Of a stretch of 64,000 nucleotides of DNA, positions 1-36,009 are shown piece by piece; position 1 is the first letter of the stretch, and every line of letters starts with the position of its first letter. A program made the position numbers and the translations under genes. The notes under the pieces were generated by a model. It had not been told where the DNA came from and did not search any database. It saw nothing but the letters and a program-made list of their open reading frames with translations. Source of the DNA: Escherichia phage MIZ4. The stretch lies in the sequence record OR167180; one strand, written 5' to 3'.

Positions 1-14
1 TTTATGCAATAAAA

Positions 15-34
15 AAGCCGACACTAAGGTCGGC
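15..34 (-). terminator. hairpin agccgac/gtcggct followed by T-run on minus strand, downstream of CDS 43..351
   Basis: inverted repeat read directly; minus strand continues TTTTTATTG. Confidence 0.4.
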
Positions 35-42
35 TAATAAAA

Positions 43-351
43 TCATTTAGACAAATAATCATTCTGTGCAATCCGGTCGGCGTATGCTGGTGTTATGTCA
101 ATCGCCAGCACTTTAACGCGTGCTTTCTTGCGACCTGGGTTTTCTCGTAACCAGTGCTCATGACCGTGAACATTTTTATACTTTGATGCTGTTTCGAAAG
201 TACGGATCGGACCTGGGTAATCAGCGTAAAGGATCTCTAGATCTTCGGTGATGTAAAAATATACATCGTAATTGCTGTTCTCTAGCTTAAGCAGAGACTT
301 TCGGAACATTGGGAGATTTTCGCGGGTAAATTCAAAGATATTATCTTTCAT
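43..351 (-). CDS. small early protein, HxHW/LA(V/I)D(V/I) paralog family member 1 of 6
   Basis: ORF track; motif HGHEHW ... VLAIDI shared with 5 neighbouring ORFs. Confidence 0.55.
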   Translation of the reverse strand: MKDNIFEFTRENLPMFRKSLLKLENSNYDVYFYITEDLEILYADYPGPIRTFETASKYKNVHGHEHWLRENPGRKKARVKVLAIDITPAYADRIAQNDYLSK

Positions 352-377
352 AGTATTATCCTCAATAGTTGGATGAA

Positions 378-397
378 AAGGGGCGTTAACGCCCCCA
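378..397 (-). terminator. hairpin GGGGCGTTAACGCCCC followed by TTTTC on minus strand, downstream of CDS 402..689
   Basis: perfect palindrome read directly. Confidence 0.35.
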
Positions 398-401
398 TAT
401 A

Positions 402-689
402 TTAAAACAGTCCTTCCTGTACACCGTAGTAGAGTTCGTCGCTGATAATTTCATTAATGCGACGGTGTGTATATTCCTGATTTGCGAAGTTGTCAGCAAG
501 TTCTACTTTAGTTTCGCCGTCATGAGTCCATTTAGTGATAACTTTACCATCTGCAAATTTGAAGTTGAACTCTTTAGCTACTGCATCGCGTACCAGACGT
601 GCAAACTTATTGTTGCGGATTGCATTGTCGGTTTCGTGTGCAGCGTGAGCAAATTTGTTAACTTTCAGAGTGATAGTGATGTATGCCAT
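402..689 (-). CDS. hypothetical small early protein; paralog of CDS 3712..4023
   Basis: ORF track; shared segment R(L/E)VR(D/K)A(V/L)AKEFN. Confidence 0.5.
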   Translation of the reverse strand: MAYITITLKVNKFAHAAHETDNAIRNNKFARLVRDAVAKEFNFKFADGKVITKWTHDGETKVELADNFANQEYTHRRINEIISDELYYGVQEGLF

Positions 690-728
690 AATTTGATTCT
701 CCTAGTTAGAAAGTGTATCTCGTTTCGA

Positions 729-764
729 TGGGTGTATTATGCTATACACCCGATCCGTTGTCAA
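729..764 (-). promoter_or_regulatory. sigma70-like early promoter with palindrome (PeSL-like cassette)
   Basis: minus strand TTGACA (759-764), CATAAT (736-741); palindrome GGGTGTAT/ATACACCC 729-750; RBS and start of CDS 402..689 downstream. Confidence 0.5.
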
Positions 765-770
765 CACTTT

Positions 771-1064
771 TTATAAAATAATTTTTTGATATTTTTCTAT
801 GATGTTTGTGTAGGTCACATCAACCGCTAGCACCGTTGCTTCGAATCCACCGTTTAGCCAATGGCTATGATCATGATCGTGAAAGAAACCTAGACCAGTA
901 CGAAGACCTTCTTTATATTCGGCGCGTACATTCAGTTTGTCGTCGATAAACAGATAAAACCATGAATTTTTACTAGGATTGATGATACAACCTTTCAGAT
1001 TAGGGAGAATATCACGACTAAGAATAAACTTATCACCTACTTTGAACATAATATTAGTCCTCAC
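771..1064 (-). CDS. HxHW family paralog 2
   Basis: ORF track; FFHDHDHSHW ... VLAVDV. Confidence 0.55.
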   Translation of the reverse strand: MRTNIMFKVGDKFILSRDILPNLKGCIINPSKNSWFYLFIDDKLNVRAEYKEGLRTGLGFFHDHDHSHWLNGGFEATVLAVDVTYTNIIEKYQKIIL

Positions 1065-1374
1065 TTATAAGGTCAAACCAATTGTTTTTAGCATAATGCT
1101 TAATGCGTGCTTGATCTGCTTCCGCTGGTGATAGATTCCATGCAACCACTACAACTTCTGACGCATCGTCATCAGTTTCTGATACCCAATGATTGTGATT
1201 CATACAGTTATTTGCTATCGAGTGAGCAAATGATTTCATCACTGGAGACGTATAATCATAGTAACGGATTTTCAGATTTTCATCAACATACAAGTAGATC
1301 GTATACGGCTTATATTCAGTAACCAGTAACAGACAGTTACGCAATTCTGGGAAAATCTTTTTAGTTAATTTCAT
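1054..1374 (-). CDS. HxHW family paralog 3 (divergent C-terminal motif)
   Basis: ORF track; YLYVDENL ... NHNHW. Confidence 0.5.
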   Translation of the reverse strand: MKLTKKIFPELRNCLLLVTEYKPYTIYLYVDENLKIRYYDYTSPVMKSFAHSIANNCMNHNHWVSETDDDASEVVVVAWNLSPAEADQARIKHYAKNNWFDLISED

Positions 1375-1576
1375 ATTCTAGTTCTCCGTAATACACGGTA
1401 ATCCATTTTTCTTCATACTTTGTATCTTTCCAACACACAATCCCGTTTACTGTGCAATCTTTGGAATTGACGAATGATTCATATTGTTCCGCATCTTCCA
1501 TCATTTCATGAGCGGTCTTTTCATCGAATATATCGCAGATCGCTTTATATGCTCGATAATCTTTAAATTTGCTCAT
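1361..1576 (-). CDS. hypothetical small protein, tandem paralog of 1579..1788
   Basis: ORF track; both begin MSKFKDY(R/K)AY and share MMEDA, GIV(C/S)WK(D/E)T; start trimmed to the Met matching the paralog. Confidence 0.5.
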   Translation of the reverse strand: MSKFKDYRAYKAICDIFDEKTAHEMMEDAEQYESFVNSKDCTVNGIVCWKDTKYEEKWITVYYGELEYEIN

Positions 1577-1578
1577 AA

Positions 1579-1788
1579 TTAACACCACTCAAGAGTTTTT
1601 GAAAACACATCTATCCATTGTTGAGTATATGCGGTTTCTTTCCATGATACAATACCAGTCGAATAATGGTTTTTGTTTCCAGAAAAGGACGGGCATTTTG
1701 ATGCATCTTCCATCATCTTTTCGGCGAACTCTGGTTCGTATACTCGCAAGATCTGTTGATATGCTTTGTAGTCTTTAAATTTGCTCAT
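1579..1788 (-). CDS. hypothetical small protein, tandem paralog of 1361..1576
   Basis: ORF track. Confidence 0.5.
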   Translation of the reverse strand: MSKFKDYKAYQQILRVYEPEFAEKMMEDASKCPSFSGNKNHYSTGIVSWKETAYTQQWIDVFSKTLEWC

Positions 1789-2053
1789 AATCGTTAACTA
1801 CCTTATCAGCTTCTTTTATTGTTTTTACATCAACTGCGATAATACGTAAAGGTTCGTCGAATGTCCACCAATGATCGTGAATATCAGCTTGTGATTTATC
1901 ACCAAAGGAATCACGAATATCATTTTTACATTTATAGCTAATGTGACCGTTATAGTCAACATAAAGGTAATTATCGAAAATCGGCGTTTTTAAGATCATA
2001 CCGAAAAATCTTTCTTTGTGTGTCTTATCCAGCGTTGCAGTAATTCGCATCAT
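1775..2053 (-). CDS. HxHW family paralog 4
   Basis: ORF track; YLYVDYNG ... IHDHWW ... IIAVDV. Confidence 0.55.
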   Translation of the reverse strand: MMRITATLDKTHKERFFGMILKTPIFDNYLYVDYNGHISYKCKNDIRDSFGDKSQADIHDHWWTFDEPLRIIAVDVKTIKEADKVVNDYEQI

Positions 2054-2065
2054 AATATATTCCTC

Positions 2066-2245
2066 TTAGAAAGGGATGGTCATTTCTTGAGCTTGTACAT
2101 TCTCGTTAGGATTAAACTTCATCCAACCGATATTGTCTACCAGCATATGCACATTTTTATCATATCCTACGTGAGTAGTCAACACTAAATGTGCTTTGCC
2201 TTCAACGATGATTTCCATGTACTTCTGAACTTCGATAGATTTCAT
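2066..2245 (-). CDS. hypothetical small protein (59 aa), below ORF-track cutoff
   Basis: hand-translated minus-strand ORF MKSIEVQKYMEIIVEGKAHL...; GGAGA RBS upstream; sits directly downstream of promoter cassette 2272..2306. Confidence 0.4.
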   Translation of the reverse strand: MKSIEVQKYMEIIVEGKAHLVLTTHVGYDKNVHMLVDNIGWMKFNPNENVQAQEMTIPF

Positions 2246-2271
2246 TTTGATTCTCCGTTTGTTGTCTTGGT

Positions 2272-2306
2272 GGGAGTATCTTACTACTCCCTTTAATCAT
2301 TGTCAA
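2272..2306 (-). promoter_or_regulatory. early promoter with palindrome GGGAGTA-N6-TACTCCC
   Basis: minus strand TTGACA (2301-2306), N17, TAAGAT (2278-2283); palindrome spans the -10. Confidence 0.5.
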
Positions 2307-2309
2307 CGA

Positions 2310-2477
2310 TTATTTGTTAATTTCTGGTGCGTTGCTAGGATAGTAACCTTCTTTAACACCCAGATATTTTGCAACCATTCCGGTGATCTTCTGTGCTACT
2401 ACGATATCGAATTTCAGGTAGTCTTCACCGTGGTTTGCTACAATGTATGCTTCGCATTCTGCTTTAGTCTGGAACAT
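2310..2477 (-). CDS. hypothetical small protein (55 aa)
   Basis: ORF track 2310..2543 trimmed to internal ATG 2475-2477 with AGGAGA RBS; the track N-terminus reads through the promoter cassette. Confidence 0.45.
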   Translation of the reverse strand: MFQTKAECEAYIVANHGEDYLKFDIVVAQKITGMVAKYLGVKEGYYPSNAPEINK

Positions 2478-2511
2478 TTTTGATTCTCCTATATCTCGTT
2501 GGTATGTGTGT

Positions 2512-2540
2512 AGTATAGGGGATCGGTGATCCCCTGTCAA
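2512..2540 (-). promoter_or_regulatory. early promoter, spacer is the palindrome GGGGATCACCGATCCCC
   Basis: minus strand TTGACA (2535-2540), 17-nt palindromic spacer, TATACT (2512-2517). Confidence 0.55.
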
Positions 2541-2548
2541 CAACTTTT

Positions 2549-2857
2549 TTATTCTTCATCTTCATTTTTATCTTTATATGCGTACTTCATAAATTTGTCT
2601 GCTACTTTGTCCGCGTTTTCAGGTTCTACGTCTGACGCTAGGACAACAGCTAGTTCGGTTTTGTCGTTTCCATCATACCAATGATTATGAGTGTCGTTTT
2701 CTTCGATATAAAACGAATCATTTGGAGTTGTGCGACAATATACGTCTAAATTCCCATCGATATAAAAGATCCAATCCGAATACAAAATGATTGCTTTAGC
2801 CAGATTTTTATTGTCTCTTACAAAAGGTTCCGCGACAAATAGCTTAGTTTGTTCCAT
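2549..2857 (-). CDS. HxHW family paralog 5
   Basis: ORF track 2549..2914 trimmed to Met with GAGGA RBS; FYIDGNL ... THNHW ... LAVVLASDV. Confidence 0.5.
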   Translation of the reverse strand: MEQTKLFVAEPFVRDNKNLAKAIILYSDWIFYIDGNLDVYCRTTPNDSFYIEENDTHNHWYDGNDKTELAVVLASDVEPENADKVADKFMKYAYKDKNEDEE

Positions 2858-2873
2858 AATATTTTCCTCAAAA

Positions 2874-3065
2874 TTATACAGCTTCGTAAACTTCCCAATG
2901 TTCAGCGCCAACACGCTTAACGAAAAGGTTTTCTTTGATGTTATTCATAAACGCCTGGATGGATTTAATGCGGTTGGAAGGTTTCCAGTCTTCGTTGGCA
3001 TTGCGGCGATACATAATAACATTACCAGTTCGCTTATATTCAGCAACCATTTTAAGACCACACAT
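2874..3065 (-). CDS. hypothetical small protein (63 aa)
   Basis: ORF track; GAGGA RBS upstream. Confidence 0.45.
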   Translation of the reverse strand: MCGLKMVAEYKRTGNVIMYRRNANEDWKPSNRIKSIQAFMNNIKENLFVKRVGAEHWEVYEAV

Positions 3066-3122
3066 AATATTATCCTCAATTTGTGGGAGAGTATTACCCC
3101 TCCCAATGAATGTTATGTTATA

Positions 3123-3443
3123 TCACACAAAATGGCGTGTCAATGCTTCTTTTGCGGTTCCGCTAAGACTTTCGATCTCGCCTGGCATAACATCAACCGC
3201 CAGAACTTCTACAACATCCTCGGACCCTAACCAGTGAGTATGACCTTTGTAGAACTTGATAACCAGACTACCTTCCTCGTCCCATTTAACGCTATCGCTA
3301 GCCCACCACACATCACCGTCGATAAAGTTGATGTAAAGCACACTACGCCACATTGAATTAATTACTTTCAATACTGCGCCTTTCATCTCTTCCACGGTAT
3401 GGTCTTCCATTTTGAAGACCTCACCTACCCGAACTTTTGCCAT
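3123..3443 (-). CDS. HxHW family paralog 6
   Basis: ORF track; YINFIDGDV ... GHTHW ... VLAVDV. Confidence 0.55.
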   Translation of the reverse strand: MAKVRVGEVFKMEDHTVEEMKGAVLKVINSMWRSVLYINFIDGDVWWASDSVKWDEEGSLVIKFYKGHTHWLGSEDVVEVLAVDVMPGEIESLSGTAKEALTRHFV

Positions 3444-3460
3444 TTAGTCACCTCTCTTTA

Positions 3461-3640
3461 TTACATAACAATCACGCCAGCCGTTGAAAGTTGATGTTTC
3501 AACTGAGCATTTTCTGCTACCGTCAAATCAATGATTTCTTGTGACGCTGCAATCATATATCCATTGGTGATATTGTTTTGCATCAGTTCAATGGTTTCTT
3601 CGTTGTAGCGGATTTTAGCGATGATTTCGTTGAAGTTCAT
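3461..3640 (-). CDS. hypothetical small protein (59 aa)
   Basis: ORF track 3461..3706 trimmed to internal ATG 3638-3640 with AGGAGA RBS; track N-terminus lies in the promoter cassette. Confidence 0.45.
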   Translation of the reverse strand: MNFNEIIAKIRYNEETIELMQNNITNGYMIAASQEIIDLTVAENAQLKHQLSTAGVIVM

Positions 3641-3674
3641 GATTGATTCTCCTAGTTCGTTTCGGTATGTGTGT

Positions 3675-3703
3675 AGTATAGGGGATCGGTGATCCCCTGT
3701 CAA
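3675..3703 (-). promoter_or_regulatory. early promoter, palindromic spacer GGGGATCGGTGATCCCC
   Basis: identical to cassette 2512..2540. Confidence 0.55.
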
Positions 3704-3711
3704 CAACTTTT

Positions 3712-4023
3712 TTAAAGTTTTTCCATGATAACGGTCATAATTACATCTTCTGCGCGAGCGGTCAGATTATCAGCGTCAGGATGTGGGCGGTTGGTTGTTA
3801 CAGAGATAACACCGTTGCGCACTGGTTTGATATTGATATCAAGATGATCCGCGAAACGTTCGCCATTTACAGAATGAATTTTGGTGTTAAATTCTTTTGC
3901 CAGTGCCTTGCGAACTTCACGAATCAGGGTAGCGTTTTTCAGTTGGTTCTCCGCGCTCATGGTCTTCTGGGTGTTCATGGTTCCGTCGAAGTCAATCATT
4001 GGCAGCGTTACGATGTATTTCAT
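3712..4023 (-). CDS. hypothetical small early protein; paralog of 402..689
   Basis: ORF track. Confidence 0.5.
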   Translation of the reverse strand: MKYIVTLPMIDFDGTMNTQKTMSAENQLKNATLIREVRKALAKEFNTKIHSVNGERFADHLDINIKPVRNGVISVTTNRPHPDADNLTARAEDVIMTVIMEKL

Positions 4024-4069
4024 TTTTGATTCTCCGTTTAAGAAAGTGTGTTTCGTTTTGATGTGTGTA

Positions 4070-4098
4070 TTATAAGGGGATCACCGATCCCCTGTCAA
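4070..4098 (-). promoter_or_regulatory. early promoter, palindromic spacer (third copy of GGGGATC-N3-GATCCCC)
   Basis: minus TTGACA (4093-4098), palindrome 4076-4092, TTATAA (4070-4075). Confidence 0.5.
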
Positions 4099-4110
4099 CA
4101 ACTTTTTGGA

Positions 4111-4587
4111 TTATTTTTCTTGATGCTCGCGCTCATACTTTTCGAAATAAAATTCTACTGGCTGATCGTGGATTGAAAGCAAGCCAAAGCGTTTAGCCGC
4201 TCGCAATCCCATATTGCGCTGAATGTACTTCTGGAAGTTCTCTCGTATACACTTACGCCAGTATTCTAAGCCCATACAGCTTTTATAAAGATTGCATTGT
4301 ACACACGCCGGATTCATGTTATCAAGTATATCATGTTCCGGTTTATGCATTCCTACAACCTTATACTTCCACGATCCATCATCATTACGGGCAATTCGTC
4401 CATTTTCATCATAGACTACCTTTGAGCGTCGCAATACTGGTTTGATGTGGTCTGCGTGCCAGCGATCCCCTAGTTCCTCGCCACAATAGGCACAACGTCC
4501 ACCGTATTTCATTTTCAGGATCTGGCGTTGCTCTTTCTTTGACAATTTTTTAGGTTTAGGGGCTTTCGCCCCTTCATTATCACACAT
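4111..4587 (-). CDS. HNH endonuclease (free-standing, homing-endonuclease-like)
   Basis: ORF track; CAYCGEEL..HADHIKPV ... N..CVQCN..K His-Me finger pattern. Confidence 0.7.
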   Translation of the reverse strand: MCDNEGAKAPKPKKLSKKEQRQILKMKYGGRCAYCGEELGDRWHADHIKPVLRRSKVVYDENGRIARNDDGSWKYKVVGMHKPEHDILDNMNPACVQCNLYKSCMGLEYWRKCIRENFQKYIQRNMGLRAAKRFGLLSIHDQPVEFYFEKYEREHQEK

Positions 4588-6082
4588 CGAATACCTCTTT
4601 TACTGTATTTGCTGTGGTCTTGTCGTAGCGAATACGTTTGATGATTGGGAGAAATAAAGAGAACTCCGGTTCATCTTCTTTACGTGATTTGCTGCGAATG
4701 TACCCGTTGCATGTCATCTCAATGACTTTTCCAATCAGGTTATGACGGTCAGCCCATAACATTTCTCGGTCGAGTTCATTTCGACGATCGAACGGAATTA
4801 CACGTTCGATACCATCATCACCTTTTTCGGTTGTGGTGTCGGTTAATCCCGATCCGGTATTAGTCATCATTCGTCCGCACGCACTACGGACAGTAAAACC
4901 GCCTACCTTATTAGGATCTTTACTATGCGGATATACATCAACAATTTCCGCGTCGAAGTCAATAACTTCTTTAAATTTAACCTGATCTTTACTACGGCGA
5001 TCTTCAAATACACCATGTAAATTTTTAAGGATAATACCTTCTAAGCCCATGTTGACATAACGATGATATACTTCGCGAGCTTCATCGATATTGTTAACTA
5101 CGGTATTTTCGATTATCTGAACACGAGGATCGTTAAGTTCTTCAACAATCTGTTTTAGTTCTTCGAATCGATCTTTATATTGCTTCGTTGCTTTCTCGTT
5201 TCCGTAATACACATCACGGTCGATAACATCCCAGACAGTGTAAACAATACATTGGGCTTCTTCTTTTGGAATAGTTCCTTTCAGTGATTTGTTGAGGATA
5301 CCATTTCCGGTCTGACGATCTGCAACAACGGATTCTTTCACCGCTTCCGCTACTGGCGTTAATGGCATTTCCTCTTCTTCAAATATCCATGACAGAGTAC
5401 CATCATAAACGCTCTCAACGAAGTTCTGCGCTGGTGTTTGCGAAAGGGTAGGCATATATACCAATTCGCCATCTAGAACAATTCCACGGCCTCGTAGACG
5501 CTCTAAAACCGCAAACAAATCATCAAGCCCTTGATAGGTATTACCTGAACGGGTATAGATTGATAATGTTTCCCCGTCAATATCAGCCATACCACGAGCG
5601 CCATCGCTTTTAAGTTGTGCATACGCCGGATACTTGATATTAGCAATAGTCTTATCAGAACATGACGATGCCAGGTGGCACGGTTGCTGGGGGATCAGTT
5701 TCTTCCATACCTTGTTTGCAGTGGTAGCGGAACAACCGCATTCCAGGTCACGATTCAGGACCATCATTGCAACTTTAGCATCATCCTCTGACAAGCAAGT
5801 CAGAGTATCGGTAACTAGCTGTAATGCTGCGTTGCCAGTTACTTGACGCGTGGCAAGTTTATTTTTAAAGACCTGTAATGCACCGGATAAAGACAATACA
5901 GACGAATAACGCGATGGTTTATCGTATTTCTTTACGCCAAACGTAACCTGTTTGCAATATGCCAGATAAAAGCATTCTTTCAGCGTTTCATTGCTCGCGG
6001 ATTCTTTCAGAATCTTTTCTTTCAGCGATGTTTTGTCTGTTGCTGCAAGCTGATTAATGATATTAAGAATTGACATTTTCAC
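4580..6082 (-). CDS. 30: ATP-dependent DNA ligase
   Basis: ORF track; KSDGAR adenylation motif; collinear by eye with T4 gp30 (GLEGIILKN, KFKEVID, NTFEDVF-like C-terminus). Confidence 0.92.
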   Translation of the reverse strand: MKMSILNIINQLAATDKTSLKEKILKESASNETLKECFYLAYCKQVTFGVKKYDKPSRYSSVLSLSGALQVFKNKLATRQVTGNAALQLVTDTLTCLSEDDAKVAMMVLNRDLECGCSATTANKVWKKLIPQQPCHLASSCSDKTIANIKYPAYAQLKSDGARGMADIDGETLSIYTRSGNTYQGLDDLFAVLERLRGRGIVLDGELVYMPTLSQTPAQNFVESVYDGTLSWIFEEEEMPLTPVAEAVKESVVADRQTGNGILNKSLKGTIPKEEAQCIVYTVWDVIDRDVYYGNEKATKQYKDRFEELKQIVEELNDPRVQIIENTVVNNIDEAREVYHRYVNMGLEGIILKNLHGVFEDRRSKDQVKFKEVIDFDAEIVDVYPHSKDPNKVGGFTVRSACGRMMTNTGSGLTDTTTEKGDDGIERVIPFDRRNELDREMLWADRHNLIGKVIEMTCNGYIRSKSRKEDEPEFSLFLPIIKRIRYDKTTANTVKEVFDV

Positions 6083-6542
6083 CTCGTTTTGTTAAACGTT
6101 CACGAATATCATTGAGGATACTACAAAATTCCGATTCAGTCAATATAGTCTTTAACGGATCAGTTCCACCTATACTATGACGCAATTTCTTATTTCCGGT
6201 AGCGAGTAATGCTTTACAAAATTCTGGGTTATTCCGTGCCATCGTAACAAATGCCAGATGTACCAGTCTGTAATAATGCTCACTCATTCGATGAATCGGG
6301 CGACCCTGAAAATATAACATGTGATTCTCTATCTTTTCGGTCCTTCCGGTTCTTTTTGCTTTGCCACCGTGCATCAAAAAGATTTCTCTTTGCTTTTCTG
6401 GATTCTTGAATCTTAATCCCTGTAAAAATCCTTCTGTGCTGTTAATATCGCAACCAAATAGACGGAATGGTCTTTTATTGAAATTGCTCAATTCACCCGA
6501 TGGATAAGGTCCACCCGCATAGATATCAATTTCAGAAGTCAT
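6063..6542 (-). CDS. hypothetical protein, possibly NADAR (YbiA-like) domain
   Basis: ORF track; LSNF ... EGFLQGLRF pattern resembles NADAR core; weak. Confidence 0.35.
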   Translation of the reverse strand: MTSEIDIYAGGPYPSGELSNFNKRPFRLFGCDINSTEGFLQGLRFKNPEKQREIFLMHGGKAKRTGRTEKIENHMLYFQGRPIHRMSEHYYRLVHLAFVTMARNNPEFCKALLATGNKKLRHSIGGTDPLKTILTESEFCSILNDIRERLTKRGENVNS

Positions 6543-9082: not shown

Positions 9083-9513
9083 CGTTCCTCATTAAGTTCT
9101 TTTCGATAATAACACATGATCAACTTACTTTCAAGTGTATATCTCTTAATATCCGCAAGCCAGACTCTGAATTTTTGGGAGTCCTCCCACGACATAGAAA
9201 CTCTAGGTTTACCGTCTATTGTATCCACTTTCAGGTCAATGTCAACTTTTTCTATTGGTGCTGGTAGTGGAGGATGTAATTTCGGTTCCTGTGAATAATG
9301 GTCCATTGTACACGAAGAAAGCGCAAATACAATAGGCACAGCGAAGACATGGATTATGGCGGTCTGAAAATTCTTATGTGCTTTCTTAAACATCCAGTGT
9401 ATCACGAAAATTGAAAACACCATCAGGATAATAATGCTTGCACCTATCCACAGATAATCAACCAGATTAAAATGGCTTATCTGCTCTTGTGTAGGCAATA
9501 TTTCTATGCTCAT
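9061..9513 (-). CDS. membrane protein; possible o-spanin-like lipoprotein if an internal start is used
   Basis: ORF track; hydrophobic segments, candidate lipobox ALSSC followed by Pro-rich stretch and conserved Cys. Confidence 0.4.
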   Translation of the reverse strand: MSIEILPTQEQISHFNLVDYLWIGASIIILMVFSIFVIHWMFKKAHKNFQTAIIHVFAVPIVFALSSCTMDHYSQEPKLHPPLPAPIEKVDIDLKVDTIDGKPRVSMSWEDSQKFRVWLADIKRYTLESKLIMCYYRKELNEERCKPKEK

Positions 9514-25441: not shown

Positions 25442-28400
25442 ATGGCAGATTTTTCTCAACATTTCAAGGCCACATTTGGCTTTGACGCTGGTAATGAAAA
25501 GGTCGTCAATGTAGCATACGCAGATAAAAACACATCAACGGATGCGGTCAACGTTGAATTTTTCAATTACCATAATGGTATTACTCAGTATGACACAACT
25601 CGCGGTTATGATCAATACGGCACTACAATCTATCAAAACCGTCCGTATTATGCAAAAGAAGATATCGCAAAACCAGCAGGTGACTTTGACCCGACTAAAT
25701 GGCAAGCACTGCGCACGGACCCACGTTGGGATTATGTTGCAGCAACTTCCGGCGATACTCCTTTAAAGTCCGGTGATTATATCGCAGCGGACTGTCAGTT
25801 TGCAAACTTGACATTCTCAATGCCTACTAATCCTGTAGAGGGCGACACTATAACAGTAAAAGATATCGGTGGCAAGTGCGGTGTTAATGAGTTATCGTTC
25901 CTTTCGGTTGGTCATGAGTTCTATCATAATGGTGTGGTAAACAACCGCAAATGGTACTGTACTACCCCTTATGCAATGAACTACTTCATTTTTGTTCGCA
26001 ATCGCTGGCACGTTTACCAGACGGGAACGGAGCCACGCGGGGTATATGCACAACCATCTATCGACCCGATCCAGATGCAAAACGGTGATCAGGTATTCCG
26101 CCGTAGTTCTTTGGGTAACATTGTTTTGATGCTTCCTAAGTTTGCTAATAACGGTGATATGATCCAGACTACCGATCTTGACGGATTGACTGCAACCAAC
26201 CATGTTACGGTAAAAGTGCATGAAGGTGCGCAAGAACAATCGATCGGTACTTTCGGGGTAAAAGAAATTGTTGGTAAGCGTAGCGGTCATGGTGTATTCA
26301 TATTTGACAAACCGGAAAACTTATGGCGTTTGTGGGATGGTGATCAGTCTGTTCGCTTGAATCCTATCATTAGTGATACTCAATTATCCCCTAATAGCTA
26401 TGTTGCAGTATTTGGTGATCGTGATGTTACCTTGACTTTACCGACCAATGTCGAGCCGGGTGATCGCATTCAAGTTTCTATGCAGTATATGCACGGAAAC
26501 CAGACTTGCCGAATCATTACCTCAGAAGAGGATACAAAAATCCTTATGCAGAAAAACATGGTTCAGTTTCCTAAGCGTAGCGAGTACCCATTCAATGGGA
26601 CCGATACATGGATGGGAGTGTCTGAATTGTCTTTCAACGCTGCAAATGATTATGTACCTTATCTGGAGTTCTCTTATTCAGAAGGTGATGATGGTAAGAA
26701 ATACTGGTTGGTGGCACATGCTTACCCGATTGTAGAACGAGTAGATCCGACTCGTAAAGATCGTGTTGGTGTAATTGCACTGGCTACCCAGGATGAAACA
26801 AACAAAAACCATGAAGATAATCCTAGCGACGAAGTTGCGGTGACTCCAAAGGTTCTGGCTAATAAAACAGCCAACGAAACTCGACGCGGTATTGCTCGCA
26901 TTGCAACTCAAGCGGAAACGCATCAAGATACTGGTTCCAACTTCCTGGATGATGTTATCGTTACGCCTAAAAAGTTAAATGACTGTGTTGCTACCGAAGC
27001 CCGTCGTGGTGTGATGGAAATTGCAACCCAGCGCGAAACCAATGAAGGTTTAGACGATACCCGCGCTATTACTCCTAAGAAATTAGAAGAACGTCGCGCT
27101 TCCGAAGACCTCGCTGGTATTGCTGAAATTGTTCAGGTCGGCGGTAGTGCTGCCGCTCGACGTGGCGAAGCTGGTACAGGGATCTATAACATCAATGACC
27201 ATGCTAAAATTGTTACGCCAAAAAACATCAACGAAGTCAAGGCGACCGAAACTTCCCGTGGTGTTGGCTATCTGGCAACTGACGCGGAAGTGCAAGGGGC
27301 TACAGAATCAACCCCGCAAGATGCTTTACTAATCACGACTCGCACGCTAACGAAACGTACTGCTACCGAATCGCGCACTGGTATCGCTGAAATTGCAACT
27401 CAGGAAGAAACAAACTTAGGTCAAAGTGATAACCATATCATCACGCCCAAAAAGCTGCATACTCGCCGCGCAACGGAAACTTTACACGGTTTAGCAGAAA
27501 TTGCAACTCAGCCGGAATTTGACTCAGGTCTTGACGATGCTCGCATTTCTACCCCATTGAAGATTAAAACCTTCTTTGAGAATGCACAGCGTTTGAAAGT
27601 AGATCCGACTCAGGGGCTTAACCTTACTGGTGATTTGTGGCAAGGTATCATGATCCGCGGTCTGGACGCAACCGAAGACACAAAAGGTGTCGCTAAAGTT
27701 GCTACTACTCAGCTTACTGACGCTGGTCAAGATGATACTACAATCATCACGCCTAAAAAGCTGCAAGGCAAAAAGGCAACCGAAGGTAAAGAAGGTATTA
27801 TCCGAGTTGGTACTCAAGCCGAAACCGTGGCTGGTGCACTGGCTAATGTAGCAATTTCTCCGAAGAACTTCAAATATGTTGTTCAGACAGAGGATACATG
27901 GAAAGCAACCGAAGCGCGTCGTGGATTCTTGAAAGTTGCTACTCAGGAAAACTGTTTTGTTGGTGATAATCTGCAAGGTTCTACTCAAGAACTAGGAAAC
28001 TACCAGCATGACGGAATTGCTGTTACCCCGAAAGGATTAAACTATGCACTTGCTAATTTCTTACCTAAGATGGCAACCGCTCAGAATAGTTTGAAATTGG
28101 GTAACGTAGAGGCCGCTAAATGGGCGCGTAGAGACATTGACCAGACCATAGAGAGCAATTACACGTTTAATAAAAACGTTAACGTGAAGGGCGATTTGGG
28201 GTGCTTAAAATCTGGTTCCTTTGAAACTCTGTTTGTGACTAAGAACTCTACTGATGTTCCGAGTAATGGTCATTTGGTGTTGGGTGAGCGTGGAGTTGAC
28301 GGTCACACCGGAATTACTCTACATGGCACAACCGCATCGGAAGGCATGAAAAACTCGTGGTCTATTATCGTTGGTGGTACTGGAACAGCGCAAGTTGTTG

Positions 28401-29182
28401 ATAGTGATGCTATCGCTTTCGGTCAAATCAATGATGGTGGAGTCGTCGAGCATTACGCCTTTGCTATGGAACACAATGGCGACGCGACAGCATATAGAGA
28501 CTTTATTGCAGGTCGTAACCTGTATGCGAAACAAGGCGGTTTATACATTGTTGACCAGTCTAATCCGGCAATGACTCGTTCCCCAGATGGTATGCTGAAT
28601 ATCGGTCACGGTGGAAGTGTTAACATCAAGGCAGGTAATCAAACGTTAACTACAGAGATCGCCGGACAGAAATATCAGATCGTACACGCAGGAAACGCTG
28701 ACGAAGTTCTTAACCGTCAGTTTGTTAAGAATGCTGGCGATACAATGGTCGGTAAGCTGACTATGGATAATGCGCCTATTGTTTCTGTTAAGCATGAAGC
28801 TAGCGCGGCAACCGCTCCGGCAATCGGTAACATCGGTTTCTGGAATATGCGAGTTACTACCCAGAACATCAAAGAAACTTATCCAGAGAAGAAAAACGGT
28901 ACTCTGATGCAATGGGGTACTGACGCGGACGGGCTTACCCAGCTTTGGTCCCCTGATGGTACTCATAAACATTATATCCGTTCCGGTACTGGTGGTCAAT
29001 GGACCGCATGGGGTGAAATTTACACCAAACAGAATAAGCCTACCGCTCAGGAAATCGGGGCAGTAGTTGCAGAAGGTGGTTTAATGAACTCTATGACGGT
29101 TCGTGATTGGATCAAAGTTGGTAATGTTAAAATCATCGCCAATAATCTGACTCGTACCGTAGACTTTATCTGGGAAGACTAA
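25442..29182 (+). CDS. 34: long tail fibre proximal subunit
   Basis: ORF track; 1246 aa, internal TPKKL...ATE..RG(I/V)AEIATQ repeats; position after rnh. Confidence 0.88.
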   Translation: MADFSQHFKATFGFDAGNEKVVNVAYADKNTSTDAVNVEFFNYHNGITQYDTTRGYDQYGTTIYQNRPYYAKEDIAKPAGDFDPTKWQALRTDPRWDYVAATSGDTPLKSGDYIAADCQFANLTFSMPTNPVEGDTITVKDIGGKCGVNELSFLSVGHEFYHNGVVNNRKWYCTTPYAMNYFIFVRNRWHVYQTGTEPRGVYAQPSIDPIQMQNGDQVFRRSSLGNIVLMLPKFANNGDMIQTTDLDGLTATNHVTVKVHEGAQEQSIGTFGVKEIVGKRSGHGVFIFDKPENLWRLWDGDQSVRLNPIISDTQLSPNSYVAVFGDRDVTLTLPTNVEPGDRIQVSMQYMHGNQTCRIITSEEDTKILMQKNMVQFPKRSEYPFNGTDTWMGVSELSFNAANDYVPYLEFSYSEGDDGKKYWLVAHAYPIVERVDPTRKDRVGVIALATQDETNKNHEDNPSDEVAVTPKVLANKTANETRRGIARIATQAETHQDTGSNFLDDVIVTPKKLNDCVATEARRGVMEIATQRETNEGLDDTRAITPKKLEERRASEDLAGIAEIVQVGGSAAARRGEAGTGIYNINDHAKIVTPKNINEVKATETSRGVGYLATDAEVQGATESTPQDALLITTRTLTKRTATESRTGIAEIATQEETNLGQSDNHIITPKKLHTRRATETLHGLAEIATQPEFDSGLDDARISTPLKIKTFFENAQRLKVDPTQGLNLTGDLWQGIMIRGLDATEDTKGVAKVATTQLTDAGQDDTTIITPKKLQGKKATEGKEGIIRVGTQAETVAGALANVAISPKNFKYVVQTEDTWKATEARRGFLKVATQENCFVGDNLQGSTQELGNYQHDGIAVTPKGLNYALANFLPKMATAQNSLKLGNVEAAKWARRDIDQTIESNYTFNKNVNVKGDLGCLKSGSFETLFVTKNSTDVPSNGHLVLGERGVDGHTGITLHGTTASEGMKNSWSIIVGGTGTAQVVDSDAIAFGQINDGGVVEHYAFAMEHNGDATAYRDFIAGRNLYAKQGGLYIVDQSNPAMTRSPDGMLNIGHGGSVNIKAGNQTLTTEIAGQKYQIVHAGNADEVLNRQFVKNAGDTMVGKLTMDNAPIVSVKHEASAATAPAIGNIGFWNMRVTTQNIKETYPEKKNGTLMQWGTDADGLTQLWSPDGTHKHYIRSGTGGQWTAWGEIYTKQNKPTAQEIGAVVAEGGLMNSMTVRDWIKVGNVKIIANNLTRTVDFIWED
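26830..28050 (+). repeat. tandem degenerate ~40-aa repeats inside gene 34
   Basis: about 10 iterations of (I/V)TPKKL-x-ATE-x-RG-x-(A/V)-(E/K)-(I/V)-AT-Q-(E/A)-ET read from the translation. Confidence 0.6.
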
Positions 29183-29187
29183 TTAAA

Positions 29188-29203
29188 GGGGGGCGAAAGC
29201 CCC
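29188..29203 (+). promoter_or_regulatory. hairpin GGGGGC-GAAA-GCCCCC between genes 34 and 35
   Basis: read directly; identical to minus-strand hairpin at 17303..17318. Confidence 0.4.
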
Positions 29204-29216
29204 CTATGGGGTTATT

Positions 29217-30356
29217 ATGACACAAGAGATAGAATTACGCAACACTGGAATTAGGTTTGCGCATTTCGACGAAGACTCTGCGACATTTACCAGCATTTCA
29301 GAAAACAACTCTGTGATGTATAAGCTGGAAGTGCGCGGATCTAATGCGGATTCTTCCAAACCAGCAAGGATTAGATTTAATGGAGTGGAGATCGTCGGGA
29401 CTGGCTATGAGACTGGTCTAAACTTTAAAGTTTTTACTCCAACTGGACAATTGCACGAAGAAAAGGTATTCTATGGTCGTGGTGCTGTTTTGGCAATGCG
29501 TGATTATCTTTCTTTATTGAATGGTGATTATATCATTGCGATAGCAACGCATGGAGAATTGTTTGCAGACCCGGTAAGTGATGATATATTTTCTAAGCTG
29601 GGATCTGTATCATTCCCGAATCACATTTTGTTACAGCAAATGCCTCGTGTGTCCTATGCTGCAATTTATTCTACTAAAATGGGTAAAATTGTGTGCGAAG
29701 GGATGCAAGCAACGCACGGGGAAGGACAAGATTCGTCTATACAAATTGAGAAAGTTTATGATACTATAGACGATCTTGCAATAACAGGAACACCACAACG
29801 ATTTTTAGATTATCCGGTTGAATATGTTAGCGAAGATGCCGAACATTTCGAGCTAATACAATGGCCTCATGATGAGATCAGCGCACCACTTGAATATTTT
29901 AACATAAAGGCAGGTGACAAACTATCAATATCCTTTGAATTGTTCCGTGATAGTGCCGCAGCCGAAGCCAACGTAACAGCGCGTTTCTATCACAACTACT
30001 TCACTGATGGACAATATCAAACTGGCGTTCGTTATAATGCCAGCCAGAAAGATCAATGGGAAAAGTTTGAAGCCGTCTATACCGTACCGGAAGGAGTTGA
30101 TAGTGTTACCACTGGTTGTATCAGATATCCAACCAACTCCAATGAAGGTGTTGTTAAGGTTAGAAACATACTAATAACGCCGATCAGTGGAGTCGTCAAA
30201 ACTACTGGTCCTACTTCCTTTGGTGTTAACGGTGTTAGAACAACTCACATTCAGGATAACGGTGATTTTACTAACCCTGTAATGAGTCTTCTTAAATTAC
30301 CTAGAGACAATAAACATATCACATCCAACAACTTTAAAGAGTTCGATGTTGATTAA
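29217..30356 (+). CDS. 35: long tail fibre hinge protein (synteny-based)
   Basis: ORF track; 379 aa; position. Confidence 0.6.
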   Translation: MTQEIELRNTGIRFAHFDEDSATFTSISENNSVMYKLEVRGSNADSSKPARIRFNGVEIVGTGYETGLNFKVFTPTGQLHEEKVFYGRGAVLAMRDYLSLLNGDYIIAIATHGELFADPVSDDIFSKLGSVSFPNHILLQQMPRVSYAAIYSTKMGKIVCEGMQATHGEGQDSSIQIEKVYDTIDDLAITGTPQRFLDYPVEYVSEDAEHFELIQWPHDEISAPLEYFNIKAGDKLSISFELFRDSAAAEANVTARFYHNYFTDGQYQTGVRYNASQKDQWEKFEAVYTVPEGVDSVTTGCIRYPTNSNEGVVKVRNILITPISGVVKTTGPTSFGVNGVRTTHIQDNGDFTNPVMSLLKLPRDNKHITSNNFKEFDVD

Positions 30357-30367
30357 CATTTTTAACA

Positions 30368-30405
30368 AGCCGATCCTCGTGGTCGGCTTTATTTTTATAC
30401 AGTTG
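30368..30405 (+). terminator. rho-independent terminator: hairpin aagccgatc/ggtcggctt plus TATTTTTAT
   Basis: read directly. Confidence 0.55.
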
Positions 30406-30517
30406 GTTAAAACATAACCAAAACGAAGAAAGATCTTTAGAATAATAGAAAATTTGTTTCGGTTAAAAAGTAGTCAGTGCCTACGGCACGTCGCAAAGCG
30501 ATATTTTGTTAACATTC

Positions 30518-30525
30518 TATAAATA
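30518..30525 (+). promoter_or_regulatory. T4-type late promoter TATAAATA upstream of gene 36
   Basis: exact TATAAATA 34 nt upstream of the ATG. Confidence 0.65.
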
Positions 30526-30558
30526 CTCGGAACTATAACTAATTTTTGAGGTTACTTT

Positions 30559-32049
30559 ATGGCAGATTTGAAACATGGATCTACTGTAGGCGGATCTCCC
30601 ATTTGGACGCAAGGAAACTTGACGATCCAGCCAGCGGGTGATCAGCTTTTCTACAAAGGTCATAAAATCTATACCGCTTTTGATAAACCTTCGGCTGCCG
30701 ATTTTGATGCTGTTAGTGCATCCGAAGGCGGGACATTTCAGAAACTGGTCCATTTTGAAGAAGGTTTAAGCGTAGGTAGCGCATCCGGTGGAGAAACCAA
30801 AAAGAACGGGATCTTTAAAGGAAATAGTGATGCGGCTAACTTTGATGGTGTAAGTTGGGGTTTGCATTCGTGGAAATCTATTGGTTTTGTTAATGCTCGT
30901 GATGATGTTATCATGGCTTATATTGACACTACCACAGGTGATTTTAAAACTAAAGGGACCATCGAAGGGACAACCATTAAAGACACTGGTCAACGCGTCT
31001 ATAGCCCTGTTAATAAGCCGACAAACAATGATTTGGATTTGGTTTCCAGACAAGGCGATACAATCACCGGAACTTATAATTTAAACACGGTTAATTTTAA
31101 ATTGTCGGTTGATTCTAAGCTGGTTGCGAGGGATCGGGATTTTATTACTTTCGATGCTGAAAACATTTATTATGGAAACGTTCTTGATACTTTAGTATTT
31201 CGTAGCAAGAACGAGCCTAAAATTTTTGTTAACGGTAGTGAAGGTAATTTTTATCATACCAACAACAAGCCTACTAAAGCCGACGTAGGATTGGGTAATG
31301 TCACCAATGACGCGCAAGTTAAGCGTGCTGGTGACATTATGGAAGGTAATTTGCAAGCGCCCAAAATGCTTGTGACAACCGATCCATCTGGACCTAATGA
31401 TCTGGTTAGATTGAGCTACTTTGAGAAAAAAGCAATGGTAGCTAGTCCAACTATCATTGGAAATGTTGATTGGAATACCCTTATTAATCGCGGTATGTTC
31501 AGTGTGGAGAATGCCGAAGCCGGACAAAATAAACCATCTGATAGCTATTATAACGGTGTTTTGATGGTATATCGACCGGAAGATGCGGTTGGTACTGTTC
31601 GAGTTGTTCAGGTCTATTACCCTGAATCAATTAATCATCCTGTTTGCTGGCGTTCTTGTTCCGGTAACTCGTGGACCGCATGGAACTATGTAGATCACCG
31701 TAAATTGGCTGATGCTCGCTATGTTAATGTGACTGGCGATACCATGACTGGGGCGTTGACGGTTCCTGCTGCGAACGGCGTTCATACCACAGAAGCTAAC
31801 TATAATGGTGATAATTGCTACGCTGGACTTAATAGCTTAAATGGTACAGCAATGATTCATCGTGTTAGTGATATTAAAGCGCACGAGAAACTAGGAATCA
31901 CACATGATTCTAAAATTATTTTCGTTAAATCCCGTGACAATACTCAAGATACAGACACTTTCGAAATATACCACGAAGGACATAAACCAACTCCTGATGA
32001 GGTTGGCGCGGTTCCGCTCAATGCGGTAATTGATTTTGGTACTTTCTAA
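30559..32049 (+). CDS. 36: long tail fibre protein (gp36 position; 496 aa)
   Basis: ORF track; position between 35 and 37. Confidence 0.55.
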   Translation: MADLKHGSTVGGSPIWTQGNLTIQPAGDQLFYKGHKIYTAFDKPSAADFDAVSASEGGTFQKLVHFEEGLSVGSASGGETKKNGIFKGNSDAANFDGVSWGLHSWKSIGFVNARDDVIMAYIDTTTGDFKTKGTIEGTTIKDTGQRVYSPVNKPTNNDLDLVSRQGDTITGTYNLNTVNFKLSVDSKLVARDRDFITFDAENIYYGNVLDTLVFRSKNEPKIFVNGSEGNFYHTNNKPTKADVGLGNVTNDAQVKRAGDIMEGNLQAPKMLVTTDPSGPNDLVRLSYFEKKAMVASPTIIGNVDWNTLINRGMFSVENAEAGQNKPSDSYYNGVLMVYRPEDAVGTVRVVQVYYPESINHPVCWRSCSGNSWTAWNYVDHRKLADARYVNVTGDTMTGALTVPAANGVHTTEANYNGDNCYAGLNSLNGTAMIHRVSDIKAHEKLGITHDSKIIFVKSRDNTQDTDTFEIYHEGHKPTPDEVGAVPLNAVIDFGTF

Positions 32050-32054
32050 TATTA

Positions 32055-32078
32055 GCGGGGATTCTCCCCGCTTTTCTA
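32055..32078 (+). terminator. hairpin gcgggga-ttc-tccccgc plus TTTT
   Basis: read directly. Confidence 0.5.
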
Positions 32079-32117
32079 AATAATATTATTCTAATAACCG
32101 TTTAAGGATTTTATAAA

Positions 32118-34886: not shown

Positions 34887-34894
34887 CAACAAGG

Positions 34895-34912
34895 GGGCAA
34901 CGCCCCCTTTGG
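34895..34912 (+). promoter_or_regulatory. hairpin GGGGGC-AACG-CCCCC between 37 and 38
   Basis: read directly. Confidence 0.35.
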
Positions 34913-34922
34913 AGTATAAATT

Positions 34923-35705
34923 ATGGCAGTAGTTGGTGTTCCTGGTTGGATTGGAAGTTCAGCCGCAAATGAAACAGGGCAACGATGGATGAGTCAAGCG
35001 GCTGGTCAACTAAGATTGGGTGTTCCTTGCTGGATGAGTCAATTTTCAGGTCGCTCGCGAGAAATTATTCATACACTTGGTGCAGACCATAACTTCAATG
35101 GTCAGTGGTTCCGTGATAGATGCTTTGAGGCAGGTAGTACACCTATAGTGTTTAATATTACAGGTGATTTAGTATCATATTCTAAAGATGTTCCTTTATT
35201 CTTCATGTACGGGGATACACCAAATGAATATGTTCAGTTGAATATACATGGCGTAACGATGTATGGTCGTGGCGGGAATGGCGGTAGCAATGGTCCTGGA
35301 TCAGCCGGGGGGCATTGTATTCAAAATGATATTGGTGGGAGGCTAAGAATTAATAATGGCGGTGCTATCGCTGGCGGCGGTGGCGGTGGCGGTGGCGGGT
35401 ATTATTCTCCTTTTTCACAAATGAGATTAACCTTTGGCGGTGGCGGTGGGCGTCCGTTTGGTGCGCCCGGCGGATCTATTGATATGCAATCAGGCGCAAC
35501 TGCTGGTACTCTTTATGCGCCCGGATCGGGGTCCGTGAACGGTATCTATAATGGCGGAAGCGGTGGTGAGGTAGGCGCCGCAGGAGGTAGATGTAATATT
35601 CGTGGTCAAGGATCTGAATATAATGGCGGCGATTCTGGATATGCTGTTATAGGGTCTTCTCCAACGTGGCAAAATCGCGGAGCTATTTACGGACCGGCTG
35701 TTTAG
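34923..35705 (+). CDS. 38: tail fibre adhesin, T2-type gp38 with glycine-rich motifs
   Basis: ORF track; several poly-Gly motifs ([26 protein letters not shown]) separated by variable segments. Confidence 0.8.
35374..35459 (+). repeat. GGC/GGT trinucleotide tracts encoding poly-Gly in gene 38
   Basis: ggcggcggtggcggtggcggtggcggg and ggcggtggcggtggg read directly. Confidence 0.7.
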
Positions 35706-35769
35706 ATGTAATTATAAAAAGAATTAAGGAAAACTCCCACGGAAGGGGAACTACTAAGGAGAAACGGCT

Positions 35770-36009
35770 ATGGTCTATAATATCGTCATTGGTGCTTTGT
35801 CTAATTTCGGAATGAAACTATTGTCAAAGTTAATTAGTGAAAAGATGCTCACTAAAATTTTCTTCTATTGCGCTCGTCGTCTTGCGGCTTATACCAATAC
35901 GCCAATTGATGATCGTTTTGTGGAAGAACTTTATAAGGAGTTTAATAAAGATCAGTCAGAAGATAGTAACGAGCAAGATAAACCTAGTGATAGTCAAGTA
36001 CCTAAATAA
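35770..36009 (+). CDS. hypothetical small protein between adhesin and holin
   Basis: ORF track; strong AAGGAG RBS; hydrophobic N-terminal half, acidic C-terminus. Confidence 0.5.
   Translation: MVYNIVIGALSNFGMKLLSKLISEKMLTKIFFYCARRLAAYTNTPIDDRFVEELYKEFNKDQSEDSNEQDKPSDSQVPK

Follow-up and report, generated by a model that had tools for sequence, protein, structure and literature searches.

Six Small Open Reading Frames between DNA Ligase and alt in Escherichia Phage MIZ4 as Paralogues of a Krischvirus-Restricted Orphan Family

We analyzed a 64,000-nucleotide stretch of Escherichia phage MIZ4 (sequence record OR167180; referred to here as the window, position 1 being its first nucleotide). Near its start lie six small open reading frames (ORFs), copies 1–6, whose products carry a central H-x-H-W motif. 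Bases 1–6100 of the window matched 59 phage records, each from a coliphage of the RB49/Phi1/GEC-3S type (genus Krischvirus, Straboviridae); the closest was Escherichia phage MIZ5, at 99.8% identity (MIZ5 position = window position x + 32000). The six-copy array lies between the DNA ligase gene (gene 30, window 4580–6082) and alt. This interval contains one small gene, alt.1, in T4 and approximately 25 small genes of unknown function in RB49-like phages, where it is one of the "hyperplastic regions" named by Arbiol et al. (2010; PMC2839356). All six ORFs are encoded on the minus strand and match coding sequences annotated as "hypothetical protein" in MIZ5. Their features, with the Phi1 counterpart, the central motif, and the PHROG of each, are:

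43–351, minus strand: copy 1, 102 amino acids; orthologue of Phi1 ORF197; phrog_9345; HGHEHW motif encoded at 151–168
771–1049, minus strand: copy 2, 92 amino acids from the ATG at 1049; orthologue of Phi1 ORF199; HDHSHW; phrog_17255
1054–1374, minus strand: copy 3, 106 amino acids; Phi1 ORF200; NHNHW; phrog_9345
1775–2053, minus strand: copy 4, 92 amino acids; slot of Phi1 ORF203; IHDHWW; phrog_15972
2549–2857, minus strand: copy 5, 102 amino acids; Phi1 ORF206; THNHW; phrog_15965; isoelectric point (pI) 4.4, very acidic
3123–3443, minus strand: copy 6, 106 amino acids; Phi1 ORF208; GHTHW; phrog_16486

An initial annotation of this stretch had described the six ORFs as a tandem array in a promoter-cassette-rich region next to DNA ligase. 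The ORFs, their central motifs, and the location were found as it gave them, with two amendments. "Tandem" is true only loosely, as eight unrelated small ORFs are interspersed among the copies, leaving copies 3 and 2 as the one adjacent pair. The start of copy 2, which had been placed at an in-frame upstream GTG at 1064, is most likely the ATG at 1049, because MIZ5 and Phi1 are annotated in this way and because of the PHROG profile alignment (the phrog_17255 alignment begins at residue 6 of the longer form).

Copies 2–6 are 23–33% identical to copy 1 in a MAFFT alignment, and the residues invariant among all six are M1, H64, H66, W67, and A83. Pairwise BLASTP between copies gave 20–50 bits. 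These scores are individually marginal and a leave-one-out profile test was therefore used, in which a hidden Markov model (HMM) of five copies was searched against the 643 stop-to-stop ORFs of at least 40 amino acids read in all six frames of the window. Each time, the model recovered the copy that had been left out (E = 3.3e-14, 3e-9, 1.9e-12, 6.3e-7, 4.1e-9, and 2.7e-6 for copies 1–6), the best unrelated ORF scoring E ~0.1 or worse; this recovery rules out chance similarity. The pattern H.[HW]W was confined to these six among all window ORFs, and the family profile retrieved exactly the same six copies from the whole 165.5-kb genome (the window plus the rest of the MIZ5 genome). Two neighboring ORFs used as negative controls, ORF198 and ORF201, gave hhalign P values of 0.39–0.48 against the family. 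Each copy matched its own PHROG at E = 1e-48 to 1e-72, and the individual genes are therefore already catalogued; PHROGs spreads them over five families (9345, 17255, 15972, 15965, and 16486), all of "unknown function", with weak cross-hits between them. Judged from their sequences, the six ORFs are diverged paralogues of one lineage-restricted orphan family of Krischvirus-type T4-like phages. The six-way paralogy and common architecture proposed in the initial annotation are thus borne out by alignment and profile tests.

The distribution of the family was probed in three collections. A word-indexed search of 5.8 billion proteins gave 80 matches, all orthologues of the six copies, and the long source sequences among them were phage-sized (165–176 kb). 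An exhaustive HMMER search of 1.84 billion (1.84e9) cluster representatives gave 21 proteins at E ≤ 1e-3; one of these, P0097 (1573 amino acids), is an RCC1-repeat protein and was rejected as spurious. When two divergent members were used in tblastn against 50,697 GenBank phage records, only Escherichia, Shigella, and Enterobacteria phages of ~162–176 kb were matched, and the matched records whose taxonomy was checked were Krischvirus. No homologue was found in T4 (139 of 169 kb, all early regions, 946 ORFs; best E 0.45). The divergent members come from metagenomes. A 20-kb metagenomic contig (L015) has the gene order cd-31-30.3-ligase-HNH-(small ORFs)-alt, with a ligase 72% identical to that of the window; its ligase-alt interval contains two copy-5-like members together with relatives of ORF198, ORF201/202, and ORF209. 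The known distribution of the family appears to be the Krischvirus-type lineage only.

Some members are fused. A 2.1-kb metagenomic contig carries five family domains in four genes, and P0083 (203 amino acids), encoded on it and derived from SRR8048117, consists of two family domains in tandem. On a 1.2-kb contig from SRR8048112 (L014, 318–1100), a 260-amino-acid protein aligns in order to ORF202, ORF201, and copy 3, fused in frame. These three genes are adjacent in the window and stand in the same order, the first two being:

1579–1788, minus strand: ORF202, and 1361–1576, minus strand: ORF201; a phrog_8471 paralogue pair directly upstream of copy 3, outside the HxHW family

The double-domain protein and the ORF202-ORF201-copy-3 fusion suggest that family domains may function side by side, and beside phrog_8471 proteins. 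ORF201 and ORF202 themselves share an 89-nt direct repeat at 72% identity.

Selection on the copies was estimated by the Nei-Gojobori method, comparing the window copies with the array of seven other Krischvirus genomes. The ratio of nonsynonymous to synonymous substitution rates (dN/dS) was 0.05–0.47 across the six slots and mostly 0.1–0.3 (0.18–0.37 for copy 1; 0–0.17 for copy 2); these values include near-saturated pairs, the two allelic types of copy 5 having dS of 1.1–1.4. Ratios in this range in all slots show purifying selection on the protein sequence. Six copies are present in each of Phi1, kvi, G2248, MIZ6, and JK32, and the slots are variable in content: copy 4 of Phi1 is a 56%-identical allele, and copy 5 occurs as two allelic types that are ~68% identical. 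JSE has a frameshift that splits copy 1, and its copy-2 slot holds a second copy-3-like gene (49–55% identity). FL04, which was isolated on E. coli K-12 MG1655, lacks copies 1–4 and keeps copy 6 and an ORF207::copy-5 fusion, so copies 1–4 appear to be dispensable. At this locus (L011, 4028–5161) the fusion is a single 172-amino-acid reading frame, and the deletion also removes the ORFs between copies 1–4; FL04 could serve as a natural knockout of these four copies. The family is maintained by selection, yet it is accessory and turns over fast.

These data bear on whether the copies are proteins with a role at all. They could instead be non-functional filler carried on mobile promoter cassettes, similar to one another through recent duplication; the region is hyperplastic, its ORFs are annotated as ORFans (PMC2839356), FL04 has lost four copies, and JSE has one in disrupted form. 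Against this, the orthologue groups are intact at the above dN/dS across phages that reach synonymous saturation, and the family persists in the relative with 72% ligase identity. The duplications are moreover old, because the paralogues share so little identity with copy 1. We regard filler as highly improbable.

Further genes distinguish the relatives. JSE (L010, 5612–5878) and G2248 (L008, 4470–4736) have an extra 88-amino-acid ORF between the ORF209-like gene and copy 6 that is absent from the window. It scored hhalign P = 0.0014 against the family, compared with 0.39–0.48 for the controls, and has GNGHLI at the motif position with no HxHW; it is probably a seventh, highly diverged member. 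C4MZ33, an 88-amino-acid JSE protein with a Foldseek probability of 0.99, is probably the product of this ORF. Other cassette genes of the hyperplastic region that are absent from the window occur in MIZ6 (L009, 2541–3014) and JSE (L010, 1252–1563 and 6549–6893); their ORFs (158, 103, and 114 amino acids) include some with signal-peptide-like or membrane-like N termini.

The array is divided into short transcription units. Near-perfect σ70 consensus sites (TTGACA-17/18-TATAAT-like) lie on the minus strand at 4098, 3703, 2540, 2306, and 764. Four of the five have a G/C stem-loop between the hexamers, the repeated stem GGGGATC...GATCCCC being common to 4098, 3703, and 2540; the stem at 2306 differs, and none is evident at 764. 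With their consensus promoters and stem-loops, and as members of families repeated in the region (D1, D3, and D4), these elements qualify as early σ70 promoter/stem-loop (PeSL) cassettes. The promoter and terminator activity of PeSL was measured experimentally in the RB49/phi1 group by Arbiol et al. (2010; PMC2839356). The mapped elements include:

3675–3703, minus strand: PeSL-type early promoter, TTGACA-17-TATACT with the GGGGATC...GATCCCC stem-loop in the spacer; scan 11/12; repeat families D1 and D3
2278–2306, minus strand: σ70-like promoter with a spacer stem-loop; scan 10/12
736–764, minus strand: σ70-type early promoter without a clear spacer stem-loop; scan 11/12; leader repeat D4 downstream
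16–35, minus strand: intrinsic-terminator-like hairpin with a T-run, just downstream of copy 1 at the array end

Read along the minus strand, the array starts with ligase, the HNH endonuclease gene, and then a promoter and an ORF210-like gene. The unit of promoter 3703 comprises an ORF209-like gene, copy 6, an ORF207-like gene, and copy 5; promoter 2540 serves an ORF205-like gene. Promoter 2306 is followed by an ORF204-like gene, copy 4, ORF202, ORF201, copy 3, and copy 2, and promoter 764 by an ORF198-like gene and copy 1, ending at the terminator (35–16). No family copy stands directly behind a promoter; each is preceded by at least one other gene of its unit. No T4-type late promoter box (TATAAATA) was found within 1–4700. 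Because all six copies lie inside short units with strong σ70-type early promoters, their synthesis most likely falls in the opening minutes of infection, a timing that we infer from the promoters.

Three promoter/stem-loop cassettes (2475–2551, 3638–3714, and 4075–4124) are near-identical and consist of TTGACA, GGGGATCGGTGATCCCC, TATACT or TATAAT, and a conserved leader with a ribosome-binding site. When translated they yield spurious ORF extensions starting MLTGDHRSPILHTY, such as ORFs 2310–2543 and 3461–3706. ORF198 (402–689, 95 amino acids) and ORF210 (3712–4023, 103 amino acids), both on the minus strand, are paralogues of each other (both phrog_7474 at ~1e-43), and each immediately follows a σ70-type early promoter, the repeated leaders being alike; a relative lies at 9122–9409 of the 20-kb contig L015. 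The HNH endonuclease gene (4111–4587, minus strand; Pfam HNH, phrog_2118) shares 8 nt with the end of the ligase gene and is probably a homing-type insertion. T4 has no counterpart at that position.

The copies are predicted to be soluble proteins of ~92–106 amino acids with no hydrophobic segment long enough to span a membrane. Their pI values range from 4.4 to 7.9 and their net charges from +0.8 to −12, and their N termini are dissimilar. AlphaFold2 models were obtained for copy 1 (predicted local distance difference test [pLDDT] 78.3, predicted template modeling score [pTM] 0.74) and copy 5 (pLDDT 82.5, pTM 0.76). The two models, made for different copies from different alignments, agree on the layout: β1, β2, β3 (Y-L-Y-I-D), β4, a long loop bearing H-x-H-W, β5 (V-L-A-x-D-V), and a C-terminal helix. 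In copies 1–6 the last strand reads VLAIDI, VLAVDV, VVAWNL (deviant), IIAVDV, VLASDV, and VLAVDV.

Among 32 diverse members aligned, His66 and Trp67 (copy 1 numbering) are the only invariant residues. Tyr33, His64, and one Val of β5 are conserved in at least 90%, and the rest of the conservation is hydrophobic core. All full-length members retrieved keep the HW pair, which lies in the loop that precedes the last β-strand. In 95 motif instances the first position was His in 92, Ser in two, and Asp in one, and H66 was present in 95/95; the residue between the two histidines is always polar or small, one Ile excepted. The signature of the initial annotation holds for its second His and its Trp; some orthologues have Ser or Asp in the position of the first His. 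Likewise, its C-terminal LAxDV strand is usual, with the Asp being Asn or Gly in several members. Its statement that no named domain can be assigned stands: searches of Pfam, NCBIfam, and PADLOC with the six copies, and of Pfam with the 32 aligned members, gave nothing above threshold. The PADLOC anti-phage defense profiles gave zero matches and NCBIfam sub-threshold noise only. Isolated weak family matches (PROCT, TTL, Cupin_2, T4_Y03C, and ISL3) were inconsistent between members. The family profile found no relative in a PDB sequence search (a chance match at E = 8.1 only), and comparison of the models returned no enzyme fold and no significant metalloprotein match.

The paired histidines raise the possibility, already voiced in the initial annotation, that each copy is a small protein that binds metal. 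Zn, Ni, or Fe would be coordinated by the H-x-H pair, perhaps assisted by the Asp of Y-I-D, by that of L-A-x-D-V, or by a second subunit, and the proteins would be metal-dependent enzymes or factors for metal sequestration or delivery. The near-constancy of H64 (92/95) and H66 (95/95) fits this proposal, as do the extra alternating histidines of copies 1 (HxHxH) and 2 (HxHxHxH) and one weak match of copy 5 to Cupin_2 that covers the motif region (E = 0.19); the two-domain fusion is compatible with a site between two subunits. However, the first His is Ser or Asp in the intact orthologues P0079, P0080, and P0082, several members have T/N/H or N/G in place of the candidate Asp ligands, and no third or fourth ligand is conserved family-wide. 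The probable seventh member in JSE keeps one His and lacks the Trp, no member reached the threshold of any metalloprotein family, and no significant metalloprotein fold match was obtained. Since the first His is replaceable and additional conserved ligands are lacking, we consider metal binding unlikely.

The same loop might form a pocket. If Tyr/His/His/Trp stacked on a base, the copies could act as small-molecule sponges for immune signaling nucleotides in the manner of Tad1, Tad2, or Acb2, the paralogues covering different signals. The structural hints in this direction are sub-significant: two hits lay far below significance and did not recur with the second model. No sequence match to a known sponge family was found in Pfam, and a conserved pocket alone would not explain why most of the surface diverges. 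A sponge function is improbable on these grounds. A further proposal, that the motifs Y-x-Y-I-D and H-N-H-W are remnants of degenerate nuclease-type domains (GIY-YIG-, HNH-, or HIT-like), draws on those motif remnants; it is disfavored by both the structure comparison and the Pfam scan of members and is barely conceivable.

Several named families were considered individually and rejected. H-x-H-type strings occur in HIT proteins and, as HFHW, in α-carbonic anhydrase. The copies do not show the HIT signature (His-φ-His-φ-His-φ-φ on a β-strand) with a HIT fold or Pfam match, and a carbonic-anhydrase-like HxHW found neither a Pfam match above threshold nor a structural match. In place of the spaced H...N...H on a ββα-metal finger that marks HNH/ββα-Me endonucleases (PF01844 and related families), there is a mere contiguous H-N-H tripeptide in some copies, and no Pfam match; the neighboring gene at 4111–4587 does match HNH. 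The GIY and YIG strands with Arg, Glu, and Asn that characterize GIY-YIG nucleases (PF01541) were not found, nor were the two cupin motifs (G-x5-H-x-H-x3,4-E-x6-G and G-x5-P-x-G-x2-H-x3-N) on a β-barrel. The Cupin_2 match of copy 5 scored 11.9 bits against a cut-off of 27.2 and arose in one of the 32 members, and the models predict a fold of five strands plus a helix. The sequence profile and fold of the Tad2/DUF2829 sponge were likewise not recovered. T4 internal proteins IPI–III share an N-terminal capsid-targeting sequence that ends at an (L/I)-x-E protease site. Capsid-targeted internal proteins of the T4 type were rejected, as the N termini of the copies are dissimilar and no T4 homologue was found in the 139 of 169 kb searched.

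We tentatively favor, as possible rather than probable, a reading in which the copies are early accessory proteins that bind host or defense components through a common scaffold with paralogue-specific surfaces. They would be non-essential and would bind their targets stoichiometrically, as host-takeover or counter-defense factors. The scaffold and its His/Trp loop would be shared, and the highly variable surfaces would give each paralogue its own target. Recombination between PeSL cassettes would drive the evolution of the array, with copies being duplicated, deleted, fused, or replaced by other alleles. The early promoter context, small size, charge divergence, rapid gain, loss, and replacement, and natural four-copy loss lead us to this reading. 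Binding seems a better description than catalysis because nearly all conserved positions other than H66 and W67 are hydrophobic core, no enzyme-like constellation exists beyond one short motif, and no enzyme family or fold was matched.

Several points weigh against this interpretation. A polar H-x-H-W beside a near-invariant Tyr would suit a small site for catalysis, metal, or ligand just as well. The motif loop has a pLDDT of 53–74 in the models, which gives moderate confidence only. Since no copy stands directly behind a promoter, the level and timing of expression are indirect deductions. The loss in FL04 speaks for dispensability only under the conditions of its isolation, and each fusion comes from one short metagenomic contig or one GenBank record, where assembly or sequencing error is possible.

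A bolder version, which we consider distinctly unlikely, is that the copies are a new fold class of counter-defense proteins. Each paralogue would neutralize a different immune component or signal by means of the Tyr/His/His/Trp pocket or a metal site, possibly as dimers or together with phrog_8471 proteins. If this were true, Krischvirus would have in its ligase-alt region a locus that is dedicated to anti-immunity and rapidly reshuffled.

E. coli phage collections and therapy cocktails commonly include Krischvirus phages. The DNA of these phages is not known to carry modified cytosine, and they would therefore need protein-based means of surviving host defenses. A six-copy orphan family under selection, probably expressed early and sited in their most plastic region, offers a compact, testable set of candidates for host-takeover or anti-defense functions and possibly a new small fold. 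Natural variants are at hand for comparison: the two copies of FL04, the replaced copies of JSE, and the fusions in some relatives. If the copies are ordinary accessory factors with subtle phenotypes, the outcome is mainly annotation clean-up, in which five PHROGs merge into one family.

In the wider window, GC and AT skew reverse sign over ~10 kb (~26000–36000), which indicates a plus-strand gene block in an otherwise minus-strand window. tRNA and Rfam scans of the whole window found none.

Part of this locus was known before. The genes are on record as hypothetical proteins and in PHROGs, and there are publications on the region and on its PeSL cassettes. In the literature searched, neither the family nor its tiny distribution is described, and nothing is said of the orphan fold predicted for it or of its variants with fusions and deletions. 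PHROGs lists five families, whereas the present analysis makes their common ancestry visible through weak cross-hits and profile tests. Among the closest parallels are the PeSL-flanked ORFan cassettes of RB49/phi1 (PMC2839356), which resemble the array in phage group, region, and the presence of small unknown ORFs among early cassettes, as well as in gene gain, loss, and replacement between relatives, represented here by FL04, JSE, and Phi1. The text searched treats the ORFs as database orphans and makes no mention of a six-member family. Cupins, HIT proteins, and α-carbonic anhydrase are alike in the local H-x-H(-W) string, but their fold, length, and other defining motifs are absent from the copies. 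The small early proteins of T-even phages, such as Arn, AsiA, and Dmd, are functional analogues. With these early host-takeover and counter-defense proteins, and with sponges of the Tad2/Acb2 type, the copies share a size of ~60–110 amino acids, location in a variable region, and rapid turnover, and probably early expression and non-essentiality as well. Set beside them, the array shows small accessory proteins, probably early, that have multiplied within one lineage in a hyperplastic region of the T4-like type.

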